A stretch of DNA of 64,000 bases from Kiritimatiellia bacterium. GTDB taxonomy: Bacteria; Verrucomicrobiota; Kiritimatiellia; SLAD01. Below are positions 27,083-57,246 of this stretch, piece after piece (the stretch's first letter is position 1; the number at the start of each line of letters is the position of its first letter). The notes under the pieces were generated by a model. That model was given only the letters and a program-made list of their open reading frames with translations, was not told where the DNA came from and did not search any database. Made by a program: the position numbers and the translations under genes. The stretch covers positions 3,817 to 67,816 of the forward strand of contig SLKG01000006.1 in the NCBI GenBank assembly GCA_007134735.1, given 5' to 3'.

Positions 27083-27502
27083 TTGCCTATGAAAACCATT
27101 TATTTATGCGGACCGATCATGGATGAACATGAGGGAAAGGCGCGCGCGTGGCGCGAAGCGGCCAAAAAGGAATTGGGCCGCGATTACCGGGTCCTGGATC
27201 CCATGCGACGCAACTTCAAGGATCGCGAAGTGGACAGCGCCAACGAAATCGTCGAATTCGACCTGCAGGATGTGCGCGAAGCCGATATCATCCTGGTCAA
27301 TTACAGCAAATCGTCGGTCGGCACGTCCATGGAAGTCTTCTATGCCTCCCACGAACTACGGAAATTTGTGGTCGCCTTTTCCCCCTACTCCTTCCAGGAT
27401 TGCAGTCCGTGGATGGTGCGTTTCTGCACCAAGATCCTGCCTTCGCTGGAACATGCCATGGCCTATATCAAGGAACACTTTCCGGGGACCAATGTGAAGT
27501 AG
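27083..27502 (+). CDS. Nucleoside 2-deoxyribosyltransferase-like Rossmann-fold protein
   Basis: 139 aa; N-terminal IYLCGPI motif resembling the YLAGP motif of the NDT-like family, with conserved acidic residues later. Confidence 0.5.
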   Translation: MPMKTIYLCGPIMDEHEGKARAWREAAKKELGRDYRVLDPMRRNFKDREVDSANEIVEFDLQDVREADIILVNYSKSSVGTSMEVFYASHELRKFVVAFSPYSFQDCSPWMVRFCTKILPSLEHAMAYIKEHFPGTNVK

Positions 27503-27545
27503 AACGCCATGGCATAGGGCATATATCTTCACTCGCAATCCCCTC

Positions 27546-27670
27546 GCGTCGCACGGGCAACCCACCCCGGCCATGCACATCGCTGTTTCGTATCCTGTCT
27601 CTTTTTCGGATTACGAGAACGGCGACGATTACGGATAACGAGGAAGAGTATCGTCCACCGTAAGCGTCGC
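27546..27670. repeat. Copy 1 of a 125-nt duplicated intergenic element (candidate structured RNA)
   Basis: gcgtcgcAcgggcaacccacc...agtatcgTccaccgtaagcgtcgc; 123/125 identical to copy 2. Internal complementary segments (gcgacgattacgg / ccgtaagcgtcgc). Confidence 0.6.
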
Positions 27671-27780
27671 GCGTCATCGTGTACCGAAGTGCCGGGATGG
27701 AACAAGGATCGAAACAGAACCCGCACGAAGTTCTCCCCTCCTGGGAGGGGACAAAGGGGTGGGTGGATGCCGGCTTATGC

Positions 27781-27905
27781 GCGTCGCGCGGGCAACCCAC
27801 CCCGGCCATGCACATCGCTGTTTCGTATCCTGTCTCTTTTTCGGATTACGAGAACGGCGACGATTACGGATAACGAGGAAGAGTATCGCCCACCGTAAGC
27901 GTCGC
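27781..27905. repeat. Copy 2 of the 125-nt duplicated element (direct repeat, 235-bp period)
   Basis: Same sequence as 27546-27670 with two substitutions. The roughly 27 bp after each copy are weakly similar and end in gtgccggga. Confidence 0.6.
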
Positions 27906-27908
27906 CCG

Positions 27909-28754
27909 CTATCGTCCACCGATGTGCCGGGAGGATTTGGTCATAACATACGCCTTCAACCGCTCCAGCTCCCTCGGGTTCAAGGGGCGGCAGGCGCCGG
28001 ATTCCAGGCGTCCCAGGTTCAGCGGCCCCAGGGCGACACGTTGCAGGCGGCGCACCTGTATTCCCAGCGCTTCAAACATCCTCCGGATGTGCCGGTTCCG
28101 GCCTTCACCCAATACCACCTCATACGCCGCACCGCGCGCGGCCGTCTTCATGCGACGGATTTTGAGCGCGCGCAGGGTCTCGTCCCGGGACCGAATCCCG
28201 TCCAACACGCGCTGCGCTTCATCCCGGGTCAGGACACGGTCCGTAATTACGCGATAGGTTTTGCGAATGCCGTGACGCGGATGGGACAGGCGCTGGGCCA
28301 GCGGACCGTCGTTGGTCACCAGGATCAGCCCTTCGCTGTCCCGGTCCAGGCGGCCCACCGTAAATACACGAGCGGGCAATTTGGGAAGAAGCGCCTTGAA
28401 CGTGGGGCGGCCACCCGGATCGTGTGACGTGCACAATATACCCGCCGGTTTATTCAACAGGAGGTAAACACGCGGCTGTGACTGAACCCGCCGGCCGCGC
28501 ACGGTCACCGTTTGACGGGCCGGATCAATCGTGGTTCCGGGCGGTGTAACGGGCTTCCCGTCCACGGCCACAACGCCCTTTGCGATCAAGGCTTCACAGG
28601 CGCGACGAGAACCCAGGCCGCCGTCGGCCAGAACTTTCTGGAGGCGAACCTTACTCGGAGGGCTTGGTTTTGGGGAGTCCAATCGCGCGGTCCCCTTCTT
28701 TCCACTTCTTGCGGCTCCGAAGAATATCGATGCGCTCATACCGTTTAAGCACAT
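27909..28754 (-). CDS. rluB: rRNA pseudouridine synthase, RsuA/RluB family (S4 domain plus catalytic domain)
   Basis: S4 domain (VRLQKVLADGGLGSRRACEALIAKGVVAVDGKPV) and catalytic motif GRLDRDSEGLILVTNDG. Confidence 0.8.
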   Translation of the reverse strand: MCLNGMSASIFFGAARSGKKGTARLDSPKPSPPSKVRLQKVLADGGLGSRRACEALIAKGVVAVDGKPVTPPGTTIDPARQTVTVRGRRVQSQPRVYLLLNKPAGILCTSHDPGGRPTFKALLPKLPARVFTVGRLDRDSEGLILVTNDGPLAQRLSHPRHGIRKTYRVITDRVLTRDEAQRVLDGIRSRDETLRALKIRRMKTAARGAAYEVVLGEGRNRHIRRMFEALGIQVRRLQRVALGPLNLGRLESGACRPLNPRELERLKAYVMTKSSRHIGGR

Positions 28755-28919
28755 TCCGCTTGGTCGTAATCTTGTTGGCCGCCTTCAAACTGCGATGCAT
28801 ACTCATAATTCTTCCGCTCCTCTTCCATCCATTTCGTAGGAAAGCGCTTATCCATACCATAAATTCGGAATCTGTCAAATCCCCCTTCCCGCCCTTCGCG
28901 CGAAGGCTCTCTTCCGGCC

Positions 28920-33304: not shown

Positions 33305-34357
33305 TCAATCCGCCGTATGCGGTTCTTCGCCAAAATCTTTTCCCGGTCGGAACAGTTCCGCCCAACCCGCCAACCCATAGCTGACGTGCATGATCGGAAT
33401 CAGCAGAAAAATCAGCAGGTCCGCCACACGCCGCGTTTCGCGGACCATGACAAGCGTGATTCCAAGATCCACGAGCGCGTAGGCCGCGAGCACACCCCAT
33501 AACACGAGAGGGAAAACCGGGTGAAAGAACGAACCCACTCCGGCCACAACCAGGGTGGCGACCCACAGGGCGGGAATCAATGTCGTAGGTTCCAGCTCCA
33601 CGCCGGTGCGTACAAGACGAATGCGCGTGGACCCGTATCCGAATATCTGTCGCCAGAACCGCACCAGTGAGGTGCGGGGATAATGATACACGTAAGCCTT
33701 CGGCAGGAAAATAAGGCGATATCCTTTCTTCTGCGTACGATAGGAGGTCACCAATTCCTCGCCCGGCCAGAAATCGGGATCGAATCCGTCCACCTCTTCC
33801 AGAACCGATTTGCGAAAGGCCATGTTGCATCCGATGATCTTCGACCAGTTAATAAAGGTGTCGTCTCCCTCCCCGCGACGATAACGCCAGGCCACGTATC
33901 CGACGGCCGGAGACGAAAGCGCCAATCCGGCCAGCCGGGAGAACAGATTCACATCCGGAGGGGTGAGGCTGGGACCACTGACCAACGCAACATCCGGGCT
34001 GTCGAATCCGTCCACGATGCGCACGGGCCAATCCGGCGCCACCGTCACGTCATCATCCAGAAAGGCAATCCGTTCCGCCCGGGCCGCGCGCCATCCGGTA
34101 TTCTTCTTTTTGCTGGAATCCCCTGTTTCGTATGACACATCCAGATGCCGTATCCGGGCATGTGTTTCGCACAATGCCCGGAGCTGACGGCGCACATCCG
34201 CGTCCGCGATGCGACCGACCGCCAATACTTCAATGCGGTCAAAACCCTCGGCCGCCACAAGCGATTGAATCGTCCGGATCAGCATGGGGCGTCCGAGCGT
34301 GGGAATAACCACCGAAAGGGCGGGATGTTCCGGATGCGGTTCTATATCGGCGGTCAT
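33305..34357 (-). CDS. Glycosyltransferase family 2 with C-terminal TM helices
   Basis: LSVVIPTLGRP...FLDDDV (DXD) GT-A motifs; three C-terminal TM helices. Confidence 0.75.
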   Translation of the reverse strand: MTADIEPHPEHPALSVVIPTLGRPMLIRTIQSLVAAEGFDRIEVLAVGRIADADVRRQLRALCETHARIRHLDVSYETGDSSKKKNTGWRAARAERIAFLDDDVTVAPDWPVRIVDGFDSPDVALVSGPSLTPPDVNLFSRLAGLALSSPAVGYVAWRYRRGEGDDTFINWSKIIGCNMAFRKSVLEEVDGFDPDFWPGEELVTSYRTQKKGYRLIFLPKAYVYHYPRTSLVRFWRQIFGYGSTRIRLVRTGVELEPTTLIPALWVATLVVAGVGSFFHPVFPLVLWGVLAAYALVDLGITLVMVRETRRVADLLIFLLIPIMHVSYGLAGWAELFRPGKDFGEEPHTAD

Positions 34358-34803
34358 AATGAACGTAAATCCTGCTTATTTTCCAGACAGGCATCAAGAT
34401 ACTGACGCGATGAGAGAATCGGAATGCCTTTAAATAGTCTGATATCCAGAAGATGTCGATCCCCGTTGATTATGACATCCGGACGAACCGTTTCAGCGCA
34501 AGCAAGAACCATGTCGTCATCCGGATCATCGGCCACTATGCATTTCTCCAACATGGAGGCTTCTACAAGAAGCGCATGATGGCATATCCATTCGATAATC
34601 TCAACGGGCGTGATCGAAGATTTGGCCAGTGCACGCTTGAACTTCGGACGCTGTATCACTTGCGAAATCTCTTCCAAAATCTCGTTTATCACAAACAACC
34701 GGTCACGGTTGTCTTCAACGCGTTCGAGAATTTGTCCCGGTGGCCCATCTTTCCAAAGCAAACCGGATATCAGGCAATTGGAATCGCAAACGATCCTACT
34801 CAA
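34354..34803 (-). CDS. PIN-domain (VapC-like) toxin
   Basis: Acidic PIN residues (VCDSN, EILEEI, DDPDDD, INGDRHLL). The TTG start at 34803 is preceded by AGGGGAG. The stop overlaps the GT2 start codon (ATGA). Confidence 0.6.
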   Translation of the reverse strand: MSRIVCDSNCLISGLLWKDGPPGQILERVEDNRDRLFVINEILEEISQVIQRPKFKRALAKSSITPVEIIEWICHHALLVEASMLEKCIVADDPDDDMVLACAETVRPDVIINGDRHLLDIRLFKGIPILSSRQYLDACLENKQDLRSL

Positions 34804-35131
34804 AGGAACTCCCCTGCTTCTTCTTTTCCGCCCGAACCCTTGCAATAATTCGGGACAGATCACGGGGAGTAACATCCTTGCTCGCGCCCGACTGCTCAAA
34901 ACGATCCTGTAGATCCCTCAACGCTGGGACGGGATCCGTTTGCCTGTGGTCCTTCTCCATGACGCCATAGGATACTCGCGGTTCGCCAATGCGTCCGTAT
35001 TGCCCAACAGGCACAATTCGAAACACCGGCTTGGAACTCCTCATCACGATAAATTCCTCTCCGGCCTCCGCACGCCTGGCAATATCCGAAAGATCACTGC
35101 GGATATCCTTCATGGCAATTATCTTTTCCAT
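34796..35131 (-). CDS. Phd/YefM-family antitoxin
   Basis: N-terminus MEKIIAMKDIRSDLSDIARRAEAGEEFIVMRSSKPVFRIVPV matches the prevent-host-death fold; overlaps the PIN gene by 8 bp. Confidence 0.6.
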   Translation of the reverse strand: MEKIIAMKDIRSDLSDIARRAEAGEEFIVMRSSKPVFRIVPVGQYGRIGEPRVSYGVMEKDHRQTDPVPALRDLQDRFEQSGASKDVTPRDLSRIIARVRAEKKKQGSSFE

Positions 35132-35332
35132 ATGTTATTCCATACGCTTTTCCATGCGTATTGTCAATTCATCATCCTTTTATCGGGTTTTCCTCAAATA
35201 ACCCATCAATCACTTCCTGTCTTCCCTTTGGCTCCTTCGCGCCTTCCCTCTTCCGGGCTCATCACGCACTCCGGCGGTCGCATCCGTCTTCGTTCCGTCC
35301 CATAGCGCGGGCCGAAACTACGCCGGGACATG

Positions 35333-35530
35333 GCGCGACCGCCCTACCCTGCCCGCGATTGGTCCAGAACCGGTAGGGCGGGGCCGCCTTGTCACGGCGT
35401 AGCTTCCCAGCGAAGCCGGACGGACCCGCCGGAACATGGGTGGTGCAACACCGGATTCATCTGCCTCGGCGGTCGCAGCGCGACCGCCCTACCCTTCCCG
35501 CAATGGGTCCAAAGCCGGCGGGGCCGCCGG
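35333..35530. repeat. Two adjacent copies of a dispersed REP-like palindromic element (gcgcgaccgccctaccc...ggtagggcgg)
   Basis: Copies at roughly 35333-35389 and 35461-35530. A third copy at 50581-50656 shares at least 35 bp identically (ggcggtcgcagcgcgaccgccctaccctgcccg) plus flanking similarity. Confidence 0.6.
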
Positions 35531-52477: not shown

Positions 52478-52514
52478 TCCATAAATTAAAATACGGCCCG
52501 TGTCCTTCCGCCCA

Positions 52515-52569
52515 TCTTTGTCCTAATCCTTGTCTTAATCTTTATCGACGAAAAGGATTAGGACAAAGA
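52515..52569 (-). terminator. AT-rich hairpin, candidate intrinsic terminator after the M20 peptidase gene
   Basis: Inverted repeat tctttgtcctaatcctt...aaggattaggacaaaga inside a local AT-rich island (52480-52580). On the minus strand it is followed by a T-rich tract (tattttaattta). Confidence 0.4.
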
Positions 52570-52581
52570 TTGCGACAAGGA

Positions 52582-53781
52582 TTACCGGTCGCCCTGCATA
52601 TTCTCCATCTCCTCCGCAAACCGTTCGAGATACCTAGCCAGTATATCATGACCCTTTAACAGTTCATCCATGACAATATATTCATCGTTCGTATGAGCCT
52701 GCTTGATGCTGCCGGGTCCAAATACGACCACACTCGAACAGATTCGGGAAATAGCGCCGGCATCGCTGTACCAAGCGGCCGACTCCATCCGGGGGGTCAC
52801 ATTGAATTCCCGGCATACACGGTCGAATCGGCCGATCAAGGCGGATTCGGGAGCGGTCCGGAAAGGAGGGCCTTCCTTGATGGTTTCCAGGTCATACGAC
52901 TGAATCACCCCTCGATCCGCCAACCGTTGCAGGACTTCCCGGATCTCTTTCCGGGTCTGTTCTCCGGATTCCCCGATCACAAGGCGGCGATCAACCTCAA
53001 TCGTACAGCGGTTCGGAACCACATTGACCGCCGTTCCGCCCTCGATGAAACCAATATTGAGCGTGGGCAAACCCATTTCTGTATTGGCGCATTGTTCCCG
53101 TTTCCGGGCAATCTGTTTCTGCAGTTGATCGATCACCTGCATCATGCCGAGGATGGCACTCCGGCCCCTGTCGGGATTGGACCCATGCGCCGAGATTCCA
53201 TGAACCGTTAATTGAAACCAGAAAATCCCCTTGTGCCCGTTGACCGCGGCCAGTTCCGTTGGCTCCAGGATGATGGCCTCATCCGCACTCCATCCTTGCT
53301 CCACCAGCCGTTCCGCTCCAATGTTGCCCTTTTCCTCCCCCATGGCTCCCACGAATAACAAGCGCACACCCGCCTCGGCCAGGCGTTCGAGAACGGGAGG
53401 CCGGAAAGCGCATAAGGCCGCGGCCATCGGACCCTTGGTATCGCAGGCCCCGCGGCCGTAGATCCGGCCTTCACGGACAAGCGGGTCAAACGGCTTGATC
53501 GTCATACCGTCCTCGCCGACCGTGTCGAGATGCGATTCAAGAAGCAAGGTGTGTTTCGGGGTGTCCGGACCGTAAGAAGCAATCAGGTTGGGCCGCCCGG
53601 GTTCAACCATATCCCAGGACAAGGCAAACCCGCGCGCTTCCAGCCATTCGGCAAGGTATTCCGCCAGGCGCATTTCTCCCGATACCGAGACATCGTCCGT
53701 ATGCCCCGGATTGACACTTGGAATGCTCACCAGGCGCTTCAACAAGGTTATGACTTCATGTTCCGGCATGGCTCTTGTCAT
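52582..53781 (-). CDS. M20-family metallopeptidase (acetylornithine deacetylase ArgE / succinyl-DAP desuccinylase DapE-like)
   Basis: LLKRLVSIPSVNP, HLDTV and GRGACDTKG motifs and a dimerisation-domain pattern. Confidence 0.75.
   Translation of the reverse strand: MTRAMPEHEVITLLKRLVSIPSVNPGHTDDVSVSGEMRLAEYLAEWLEARGFALSWDMVEPGRPNLIASYGPDTPKHTLLLESHLDTVGEDGMTIKPFDPLVREGRIYGRGACDTKGPMAAALCAFRPPVLERLAEAGVRLLFVGAMGEEKGNIGAERLVEQGWSADEAIILEPTELAAVNGHKGIFWFQLTVHGISAHGSNPDRGRSAILGMMQVIDQLQKQIARKREQCANTEMGLPTLNIGFIEGGTAVNVVPNRCTIEVDRRLVIGESGEQTRKEIREVLQRLADRGVIQSYDLETIKEGPPFRTAPESALIGRFDRVCREFNVTPRMESAAWYSDAGAISRICSSVVVFGPGSIKQAHTNDEYIVMDELLKGHDILARYLERFAEEMENMQGDR

Positions 53782-53999: not shown

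Positions 54000-57246
<3,247 letters not shown>

Follow-up and report, generated by a model that had tools for sequence, protein, structure and literature searches.

The subject of this report is a pair of near-identical repeats in a 64,000-nt stretch of contig SLKG01000006.1, from a soda-lake Kiritimatiellia metagenome-assembled genome (MAG); we refer to the whole stretch as the window. The repeats lie between two convergent genes, one encoding a nucleoside 2-deoxyribosyltransferase-like (NDT-like) protein and the other the 23S rRNA pseudouridine synthase RluB. Pfam domains confirm the identity of both flanks and the location given by an earlier, sequence-only reading of this DNA, which had proposed the repeats as a candidate small RNA (sRNA) pair. 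Upstream of the NDT-like gene is proS, and a GH172 gene lies past rluB. The stop codons of the two convergent genes are 406 nt apart, and the spacer between them contains two copies of a unit (A and A′) together with a shorter motif (S), arranged as follows.

27089-27502, plus strand: NDT-like gene, left flank (Pfam PF15891/PF05014).
27503-27544: unique, non-repeated leader of 42 nt from the NDT stop codon to copy 1; its first ~15 nt alone resemble a 93% relative (L014).
27545-27708: repeat unit copy 1 (A), from the repeat search and folds; its hairpin arms are homologous to a Victivallales locus (L083) and it is conserved in a sister-lineage contig (L136).
27560-27572, within copy 1: start of the A unit, ACCCACCCCGGCC.
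27709-27733: flank of copy 1, TTCGTGCGGGTTCTGTTTCGATCCTTGTTC on the minus strand; outside the duplicated segment and conserved with copy 1 in the sister lineage.
27734-27764, plus strand: S motif in its short form, TCCCCTCC-TG-GGAGGGG-ACAAA-GGGGTGGGT, found by pattern match.
27765-27779: linker of 15 nt from the S motif to copy 2.
27780-27943: repeat unit copy 2 (A′), whose right-hand ~35 nt serve as rluB coding sequence for the final 11 codons and the stop codon.
27909-28754, minus strand: rluB, right flank (Pfam S4 and PseudoU_synth_2); the public MAG annotation (L001) places its start at 28682.

Extent and integrity of the repeat

A repeat search of the window aligned 27545-27697 with 27780-27932, a direct repeat of 153 nt with 95% identity and a spacing of 235 nt. 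At this fixed offset, 27545-27670 is identical to the second copy at 124 of 126 positions, which agrees with the 123/125 originally counted for 27546-27670. The two mismatches in this core are an A/G at 27553/27788 and a T/C at 27654/27889. Further to the right, 27671-27708 matches the second copy at 23 of 38 positions without gaps; this tail of ~38 nt is about 60-80% identical between copies, and beyond 27708 similarity falls to the level of chance. Because similarity continues past the 126-nt core to ~27708, the repeat unit is ~155-164 nt long, more than had been noted, and the truly unique spacer between copies is ~71-82 nt. The copies are thus separated, as described, but the 110 bp previously taken as their spacer is too long. 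Copy 2 was scored by nhmmer with E=1.4e-39, and the idea of recent duplication or homogenisation holds for the core. Exact-word searches located no unit copies in the 64-kb window besides the two (chance expectation 0).

Metagenome assembly could in principle collapse or concatenate strain variants into an artefactual pair of this kind. Several short contigs (L002, L003, L004 and L136) do end inside the unit, and the same NDT gene is found on two JGI contigs of a single sample, but a true repeat would break a de Bruijn graph at just such positions. The NCBI MAG contig L001 (PWZD01000042.1) has a two-copy sequence identical to that of the window, and the JGI contig L003, a separate assembly, covers copy 1 and the spacer and continues into copy 2. 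The same order of copy 1, spacer and copy 2 is therefore seen in the window, L001 and L003, and the spacer and diverged 3′ parts are unique sequence that needs a place. Contig L004, from the Logan collection, ends at 27583, exactly 30 nt past the first A/A′ mismatch (27553); the Logan graph setting is k=31, and such a graph has to branch at this point when the tandem pair is all there is. We regard an assembly artefact as very unlikely.

Fold and anatomy of the unit

Each strand of the unit folds into the same three parts: an outer stem of 10 bp in which CCACCCCGGC (27561-27570) pairs with GCCGGGATGG (27691-27700), an unpaired stretch of 33 nt (27573-27605) and an imperfect hairpin of 82 nt (27606-27688) with a 9-nt loop. 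The internal stem of ~13 bp recognised in the sequence-only reading is the inner part of this hairpin, and the spacer hairpin that it described, CTCCCCTCC-TGG-GAGGGGA, is present at 27734-27752. Folds of both copies support the view that the units are structured, the z-scores being -2.6 to -3.4 for single units and -6.3 for the minus-strand spacer as a whole.

The minus strand is favoured in these folds, with energies of -63.3 and -63.0 kcal/mol for the two copies compared with -54.7 and -52.4 kcal/mol on the plus strand. Minus-strand hairpins are 8-11 kcal/mol more stable than their plus-strand counterparts, and five minus-strand G-U pairs correspond to A·C mismatches on the plus strand. The copy difference at 27654/27889, which is T/C when read on the plus strand and A/G when read on the minus strand, changes an A-U to a G-U pair and is paired on the minus strand only, while the clustered copy differences in one arm (UGACGCGCG versus UAGCGGGCG) re-pair with the unchanged partner arm.

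Both arms of the hairpin are built from short repeats. Arm 1 has a loose internal periodicity (CGGATTA CGAGAA CGGCGA CGATTA CGGATAA), and the other arm consists of two ~13-nt units, CGGTRSACGATR. On the plus strand a T-run lies 5′ of the hairpin, so that on the minus strand the hairpin is followed by an A-run, an order that is wrong for a terminator in either direction. When the whole spacer is folded, GGGGTGGGT of the S motif can pair with ACCCACCCC of copy 2 (27795-27803). The start of the A unit, ACCCACCCCGGCC, and the outer-stem partner, GCCGGGATGG, also resemble the ends of the S motif in inverted orientation, so that related boxes and hairpins appear to make up the whole spacer in a mosaic fashion.

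RNA families, expression signals and coding potential

Searches of Rfam 15 gave no match at gathering score in the window, and the region 27300-28100 gave only chance-level matches (E>=1), none of them real at E<=10. A tRNA, a tmRNA or another known RNA family was considered and none was found in the window. Neither a sigma-70-like promoter nor an intrinsic terminator was found in the spacer, although these consensus sequences may not suit bacteria of the Planctomycetes-Verrucomicrobia-Chlamydiae (PVC) group, and neither the A nor the S hairpins are followed by a U-tract, whichever strand is read. The check suggested at the outset, an Rfam scan combined with folding, was negative in its first part and produced stable folds in its second.

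These results separate two components of the sRNA-pair proposal. The elements are structured, very unlikely to code for protein and recently duplicated or homogenised in their core, as it held. That they are a pair of sRNA genes is not supported as stated, in view of the lack of an Rfam match and of a promoter or terminator, of the overlap of copy 2 with the rluB stop codon, and of two results presented below, namely that the spacer is absent from the junction in most relatives and that its parts belong to or resemble dispersed palindromic repeats.

Small proteins or peptides are another conceivable product, since four of the six frames are open through the unit. Candidates include a 21-aa open reading frame (ORF), MHIAVSYPVSFSDYENGDDYG, that is present in both copies, and Arg-rich minus-strand ORFs of 65/81 aa; an AGGAGG sequence is located 10 nt upstream of the GTG start of the minus-strand ORF 27529-27726. 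Against this, the start sites of the two minus-strand ORFs do not correspond, no Shine-Dalgarno sequence precedes the 21-aa ORF and none of the frames is kept in L083 or L136. The L001 annotation has no ORF in the unit; in L002 and L003 the only ORFs called there are cut off by the contig ends. Searches with the unit ORFs detected neither a protein family nor a homologue: a six-frame concatenated query against 5.8 billion clusters returned none among the matches listed, and a 115-aa minus-strand ORF compared with 1.84 billion representative proteins returned three weak matches, all to long low-complexity proteins. We consider peptides highly improbable. The original reading had likewise judged protein coding unlikely from two ORFs that end in an identical peptide; both are in the ORF list (27148-27663 and 27689-27898), and its judgement stands.

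Copies of the unit were also sought beyond the window. A 24-mer had 0 matches in GTDB representatives, among which the species is not included, and this word spans a JGI contig break point. A 20-mer from the unpaired stretch recovered the known contig only from JGI metagenomes, an incomplete collection in which the known L003 was missed. Words derived from A retrieved no unit from IMG/VR, giving two chance matches in coding regions and one (CGATTA)n array, and the unit had no BLASTN match in plasmids and phages.

Insertion at the NDT/rluB junction

We compared the junction with that of relatives whose loci were fetched through their NDT and RluB proteins. Where the convergent pair is kept, the distance between stop codons is usually -20 to +19 nt, so that the genes abut or overlap (L005-L011, L017, L019, L021, L061, L067, L070 and L137). 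Two exceptions, L066 and L016, have 91 and 209 nt of unrelated sequence, respectively. A blastn search with 7-nt words found no spacer-like sequence in the NDT/rluB loci of relatives, and relatives with 83-85% NDT identity lack the element. Within RluB, homology to relatives stops at ...LERLKAYV; what follows, namely 11 residues (MTKSSRHIGGR) and the stop codon, is copy 2 sequence.

Since most relatives have these two genes abutting or overlapping, the 406-nt spacer is best explained as a lineage-restricted insertion and not as an ancestral intergenic RNA locus. A different origin of the spacer, as a decayed or tandem copy of the rluB 3′ end, was examined and rejected: the local alignment score of 14 is at chance level (shuffled mean 14.2).

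Different hairpin insertions occupy this position in other soda-lake Kiritimatiellae. The 209-nt spacer of L016 (2190-2398) contains a 20-bp inverted repeat (GGAGGGCGGAGCTCTGCGA...). In L012 (1209-1700) and L015, the NDT gene is directly followed by a truncated four-helix-bundle ORF that is bounded by inverted arms of GTACGAG-type repeats. Insertions thus seem to have landed repeatedly behind the NDT gene.

The S motif as a member of a dispersed family

The S motif at 27734-27764 fits exactly a family pattern that we define as TCCCCTCC-N2-5-GGAGGGG-N4-16-GGGGTGGGT. It occurs once in the window, where its plus strand fits a G-quadruplex consensus. A scan of IMG/VR with the same pattern returned 38 stretches with up to 6 copies per 8.5 kb, and these loci (L095-L132) and L083 (1082-1119) provide 55 distinct instances. 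Instances are at times arranged in inverted pairs or enclosed by ACCCACCCC...GGGGTGGGT outer stems, and they often adjoin short tandem repeats. Their orientation has no clear bias with respect to flanking ORFs, as judged by crude ORF calling.

A long form of the motif offers evidence of a conserved structure. Its linker is a second hairpin, GCCCG.AGGGC, that is 97.5% paired and has compensatory GC/CG and CG/UA changes in 10 double-change cells, a value that none of 500 shuffles reached. No Rfam family was found for the motif in a scan of S-bearing loci, and the S consensus had no BLASTN match in plasmids and cultured phages, a search in which the low-complexity filter may hide S. In the literature we found no description of the S motif or of the tandem-repeat-arm architecture in PVC bacteria. 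Judged from these matches, S is a widespread motif of 31-39 nt resembling the repetitive extragenic palindromes (REP) of other bacteria, dispersed in many genomes and phage-like contigs and absent from Rfam.

Elsewhere in the window, an inverted repeat at 35314-35406 has 35-nt arms of the GGTAGGGCGGGGCCGCC type and resembles repeats found beside S motifs in IMG/VR, for example in L097.

A homologous unit and hairpins of similar architecture

Among ~0.9 Mb of fetched loci, L083, from a Victivallales MAG, is alone in having multiple matches to the unit (nhmmer E=2.6e-4 and 3.9e-4 in 0.9 Mb). The matches lie 1.4 kb from its NDT gene, beside an HMGL-like gene, and follow the order seen in the window: a T-run, a long hairpin and, ~100 nt later, an S motif (TCCCCTCCCTGGAGGGGTGCCCGTAGGGCGGGGTGGGT). 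The arms of the L083 hairpin are CGATTAC/CGTAATC repeats, and GGCGACGATTACG and CGTnATCGTnnACCGA are common to it and the window unit. An alignment of three sequences yielded 0 compensatory pairs in the long hairpin, MAFFT having left the L083 3′ arm unaligned. Finding the hairpin and motif together at an unrelated locus, in a bacterium of a different taxonomic order, is what a mobile or repeatedly inserted module would be expected to produce.

Two further hairpins in the window are built on similar lines. The first (52503-52584) closely follows the stop codon of a peptidase M20 gene, in a gap flanked by two minus-strand genes, and has arms made of 12-nt tandem repeats (ATCCTTGTCCTA); it shares the architecture of the unit without being related to it in sequence. 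The second (56879-57011) is a ~130-nt hairpin with arms of 10-12-nt tandem repeats, AACACGGACA / GTCCGTGTCG, and sits in frame inside a plus-strand four-helix-bundle gene (56440-57246) that matches TIGR02436 and the TIGR04258 suffix domain. This four-helix-bundle family is that of the proteins of 23S rRNA intervening sequences (IVS), and we take it to include also Avd of diversity-generating retroelements (DGR).

We also considered a system that makes use of the repeats, such as a DGR template/variable pair, a retron non-coding RNA with an NDT-like effector, or ToxI-like repeats. Near-identical direct repeats of ~126 nt that differ by one A/G and one T/C would be in keeping with such a system, as would an Avd-like gene 29 kb away. 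NDT-like domains serve as effectors in some retrons. Yet a scan of ~45 window ORFs against Pfam identified no reverse transcriptase, integrase or transposase in the 64 kb, and the lack of the first of these argues against both a DGR and a retron. Relatives carry the conserved NDT-like gene without the element, which is unfavourable for a retron, and for a DGR copy 2 overlaps merely the last 11 rluB codons and the two core mismatches comprise one A/G and one T/C. ToxI-like repeats would number more than two and precede a ToxN-like gene; the repeats here are downstream of both flanking genes and upstream of none, and no ToxN-like gene is there to be preceded. We find a repeat-using system of any of these types extremely improbable.

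The element in a sister lineage

The RluB search yielded one closer relative (P0125, 81% amino-acid identity), encoded on L136, a 1.3-kb Logan contig, and here the junction is not empty. Downstream of rluB and in the same orientation, L136 has two conserved blocks: a flank, TTCGTGCGGGTTCTGTTCCGATCCTTGTTCCATCCCGGCAC, that is identical to window 27732-27692 (minus strand) at 40 of 41 positions, and an apical loop with one hairpin arm that is identical to the window at 51 of 54. The element was thus presumably at the junction before the lineages of the window and L136 split, unless it was exchanged later. The contig ends inside the element, and the sister sequence is partial. It has neither a second copy abutting rluB nor a clear S motif, and the long hairpin is disrupted in it by the absence of a 26-nt arm repeat.

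L136 also provides hints as to how the second copy arose in the window. Its rluB ends in ...TCCTCCCGGCGC, which resembles the TCCTCCCGGCAC that starts window copy 2, and TCCTCCCGGC at the end of rluB is accompanied by CCATCCCGGCAC at the start of the single visible unit. These similarities suggest that, in the window, the body of the unit was copied beside a pre-existing TCCCGGC box, which would explain why the 38-nt tail is far more diverged than the core. The conserved flank at 27709-27733 points to copy 1 as the original.

A mosaic of palindromic modules or a selected RNA

Taking the repeat and its fold, the insertion, the homologous unit at an unrelated locus, the membership of S in a family and the conservation in the sister lineage together, we give about an even chance to the following interpretation. 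The spacer would be a mosaic of hairpin modules similar to REP doublets forming hairpins (REPIN) and bacterial interspersed mosaic elements (BIME), inserted between convergent genes, duplicated locally and most plausibly acting in cis at the 3′ end of rluB. The module would be non-autonomous and consist of a long imperfect hairpin with short-repeat arms, bracketed by boxes of the ACCCACCCC/GGGGTGGGT type, and one 31-nt S motif. Its mobility would have brought the unit to the junction in the common ancestor of the species and the sister lineage, and a body of 126-153 nt would then have been copied once more in the window lineage. This copying probably made use of shared ...TCCCGGCAC boxes, by template switching or unequal exchange, and would have left copy 2 abutting rluB and supplying its last 11 codons and stop codon. 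The units would be transcribed on the minus strand as the 3′ end of the rluB mRNA and would presumably not function as two stand-alone trans-acting sRNA genes. Any cis role as 3′ hairpins might be to block 3′ exonucleases, to stall or terminate transcription, or to insulate the convergent genes.

Several observations weigh against the mosaic interpretation. Dispersed multi-copy occurrence, the hallmark of REP, REPIN and miniature inverted-repeat transposable elements (MITEs), was not seen for the A unit in the window or in the JGI, GTDB, IMG/VR, plasmid and phage scans. The end of L004 30 nt past a mismatch means that the contig breaks need only the tandem pair and no further genomic copies. 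No REP-associated tyrosine transposase (RAYT, a Y1 transposase) is encoded among the ~45 window ORFs scanned against Pfam, and no target-site duplication was found, the flanks of the two copies sharing no direct repeat. Conservation provides the remaining points. Between the window and L136 the unit is identical at 91 of 95 positions (96%), compared with 82% for the rluB coding sequence, and at four-fold sites identity is 61% for rluB (81/132) and 73% for a neighbouring 51-aa gene. The unit is far better conserved than neutral sites, as purifying selection on a functional RNA would give, and a passively decaying insertion would not show such conservation.

This contrast with four-fold sites is the strongest support for the main alternative, that purifying selection maintains the units as functional structured RNAs. 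They would have originated in a mobile hairpin and been retained as paralogous sRNAs, as minus-strand RNAs derived from the rluB 3′ untranslated region (UTR) or as a cis-regulatory RNA. In the cis-regulatory variant, GGGGUGGGU would pair alternatively with CCAUCCCGGC or ACCCACCCC. Such selection is also compatible with the folding z-scores given above and with the 98% identity of the 126-nt core between copies, whose differences cluster in one arm and pair on the minus strand. At 3/3 loci (the window, L136 and L083), moreover, the element is downstream of a gene in the same orientation. Other results are unfavourable to it: the absence of an Rfam family and of a promoter or terminator consensus, the absence of the element from the junction of most other relatives, and the hairpin broken in L136 by the loss of 26 nt of one arm. 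The comparison involves one partial sister sequence and 0 compensatory pairs, and high identity could also be obtained by recent spread or gene conversion of a repeat. We hold selected RNAs, most likely on the minus strand, to be possible, at a tentative level. A specific version, in which the ~160-nt unit is a genus-specific structured RNA, domesticated from a mobile hairpin, kept by selection on its minus strand within or beyond the rluB 3′ UTR and recently duplicated into two paralogues, we treat as a somewhat doubtful possibility.

Comparison with known systems

REP, BIME and REPIN are repetitive extragenic palindromes of proteobacteria that are associated with RAYT; REP and REPIN elements were reportedly treated by Bertels and Rainey in 2011 and by Nunvar et al. 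in 2010. Like these elements, the spacer contains imperfect extragenic palindromes of a kind typically found between convergent genes. In the window these are the 82-nt imperfect hairpin and 10-bp stem, with copy 2 overlapping 11 rluB codons. Further likenesses are mosaic clusters of several modules in either orientation, the folding of doublets into hairpins of ~100 nt and a presumed cis effect on mRNA 3′ ends, and S resembles REP in being short, hairpin-bearing and multi-copy, with inverted pairs. Unlike REP and REPIN, the A unit is known in two adjacent copies, S is single-copy in the 64-kb window and no RAYT was seen; the A unit is also larger (~160 nt), has a 33-nt unpaired stretch and resides in a Kiritimatiellia host.

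MITEs such as the Correia elements of Neisseria and the enterobacterial ERIC/IRU repeats are similar in being non-coding long imperfect hairpins of ~130-160 nt with inverted ends, inserted in transcribed intergenic regions and able to alter the 3′ ends of genes. The only inverted ends of the A unit are the 10-nt stem CCACCCCGGC/GCCGGGATGG, and together with the missing target-site duplication and the arms of short internal repeats this sets it apart from Correia, ERIC and IRU elements and does not identify it as a MITE.

The sRNA pairs PrrF1/PrrF2 of Pseudomonas aeruginosa and OmrA/OmrB of E. coli share the head-to-tail arrangement of two >95% identical units of ~100-150 nt in an intergenic region, with a ~100-nt spacer. 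Each of these sRNAs has its own regulated promoter and Rho-independent terminator and is conserved across a genus or family, whereas the unit has no promoter or terminator that we could find, its second copy overlaps a stop codon and its locus is empty in most relatives.

Short repeats in hairpin arms recall two further groups. STRR are short tandemly repeated repetitive heptamers of cyanobacteria. As in STRR and in IVS four-helix-bundle elements, the arms of the hairpins consist of short (6-13 nt) tandem-like units, and as in IVS elements a four-helix-bundle remnant lies between such arms in L012/L015 and a hairpin of this type is present in the four-helix-bundle gene of the window. Unlike both groups, A has a degenerate periodicity, no ORF in its 9-nt loop and no rRNA link, and the likeness is architectural only. 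STRR are mentioned in PMC2858038, and the 23S rRNA IVS has been described as a selfish element (PMC4990558).

Flanking genes and genomic context

The window is ordinary core chromosome. Its genes include aspS, proS, rnc, accA, ligA, ftsQAZ, ddl, murC and polysaccharide glycosyltransferases. An identical NDT protein is encoded in MAG GCA_003567595.1 and was also recovered from a soda-lake sediment metagenome, and NDT homologues are labelled Kiritimatiellia.

The 137-aa NDT-like protein is unusually conserved, with 75-85% identity across MAGs labelled Kiritimatiellia, Lentisphaerae, Victivallales and others, whereas the neighbouring RluB is merely 50-60% identical in those same genomes. Just upstream of rluB, a minus-strand ORF of 51 aa (28651-28806; MSMHRSLKAANKITTKRNVLKRYERIDILRSRKKWKEGDRAIGLPKTKPSE) matches its counterpart on the sister contig L136 at 49 of 52 positions; gene calls for L001, L006-L008, L009 and L137 include it beside rluB, and it has no Pfam family. 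A minus-strand gene with a PIN_3 domain (34354-34899) has a third-position GC content of 0.49, compared with ~0.7 in its neighbours, and could be a candidate toxin-antitoxin or otherwise acquired gene.

Implications for Kiritimatiellia and other PVC bacteria

As first submitted, the element was a candidate sRNA pair for a poorly studied phylum, and the evidence points instead to a palindromic repeat mosaic. Mosaic palindromic repeats are familiar as bacterial "junk" DNA and are hardly described for Kiritimatiellia or other PVC bacteria. At this junction a young repeat seems to have remodelled a housekeeping gene, rewriting the 3′ end of rluB and pushing two genes apart. The finding would be an ordinary one if the unit turned out to be dispersed in the genome. 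The contrast of the conserved unit (96% compared with ~61% at neutral sites) with the S motif offers a test of whether such repeats are tolerated or recruited as RNA. If recruitment as a domesticated RNA were true, the unit and the S motif would represent an undescribed hairpin family of PVC bacteria, characterised by tandem-repeat arms and ACCCACCCC/GGGGTGGGT boxes, whose members are able to become functional RNAs.

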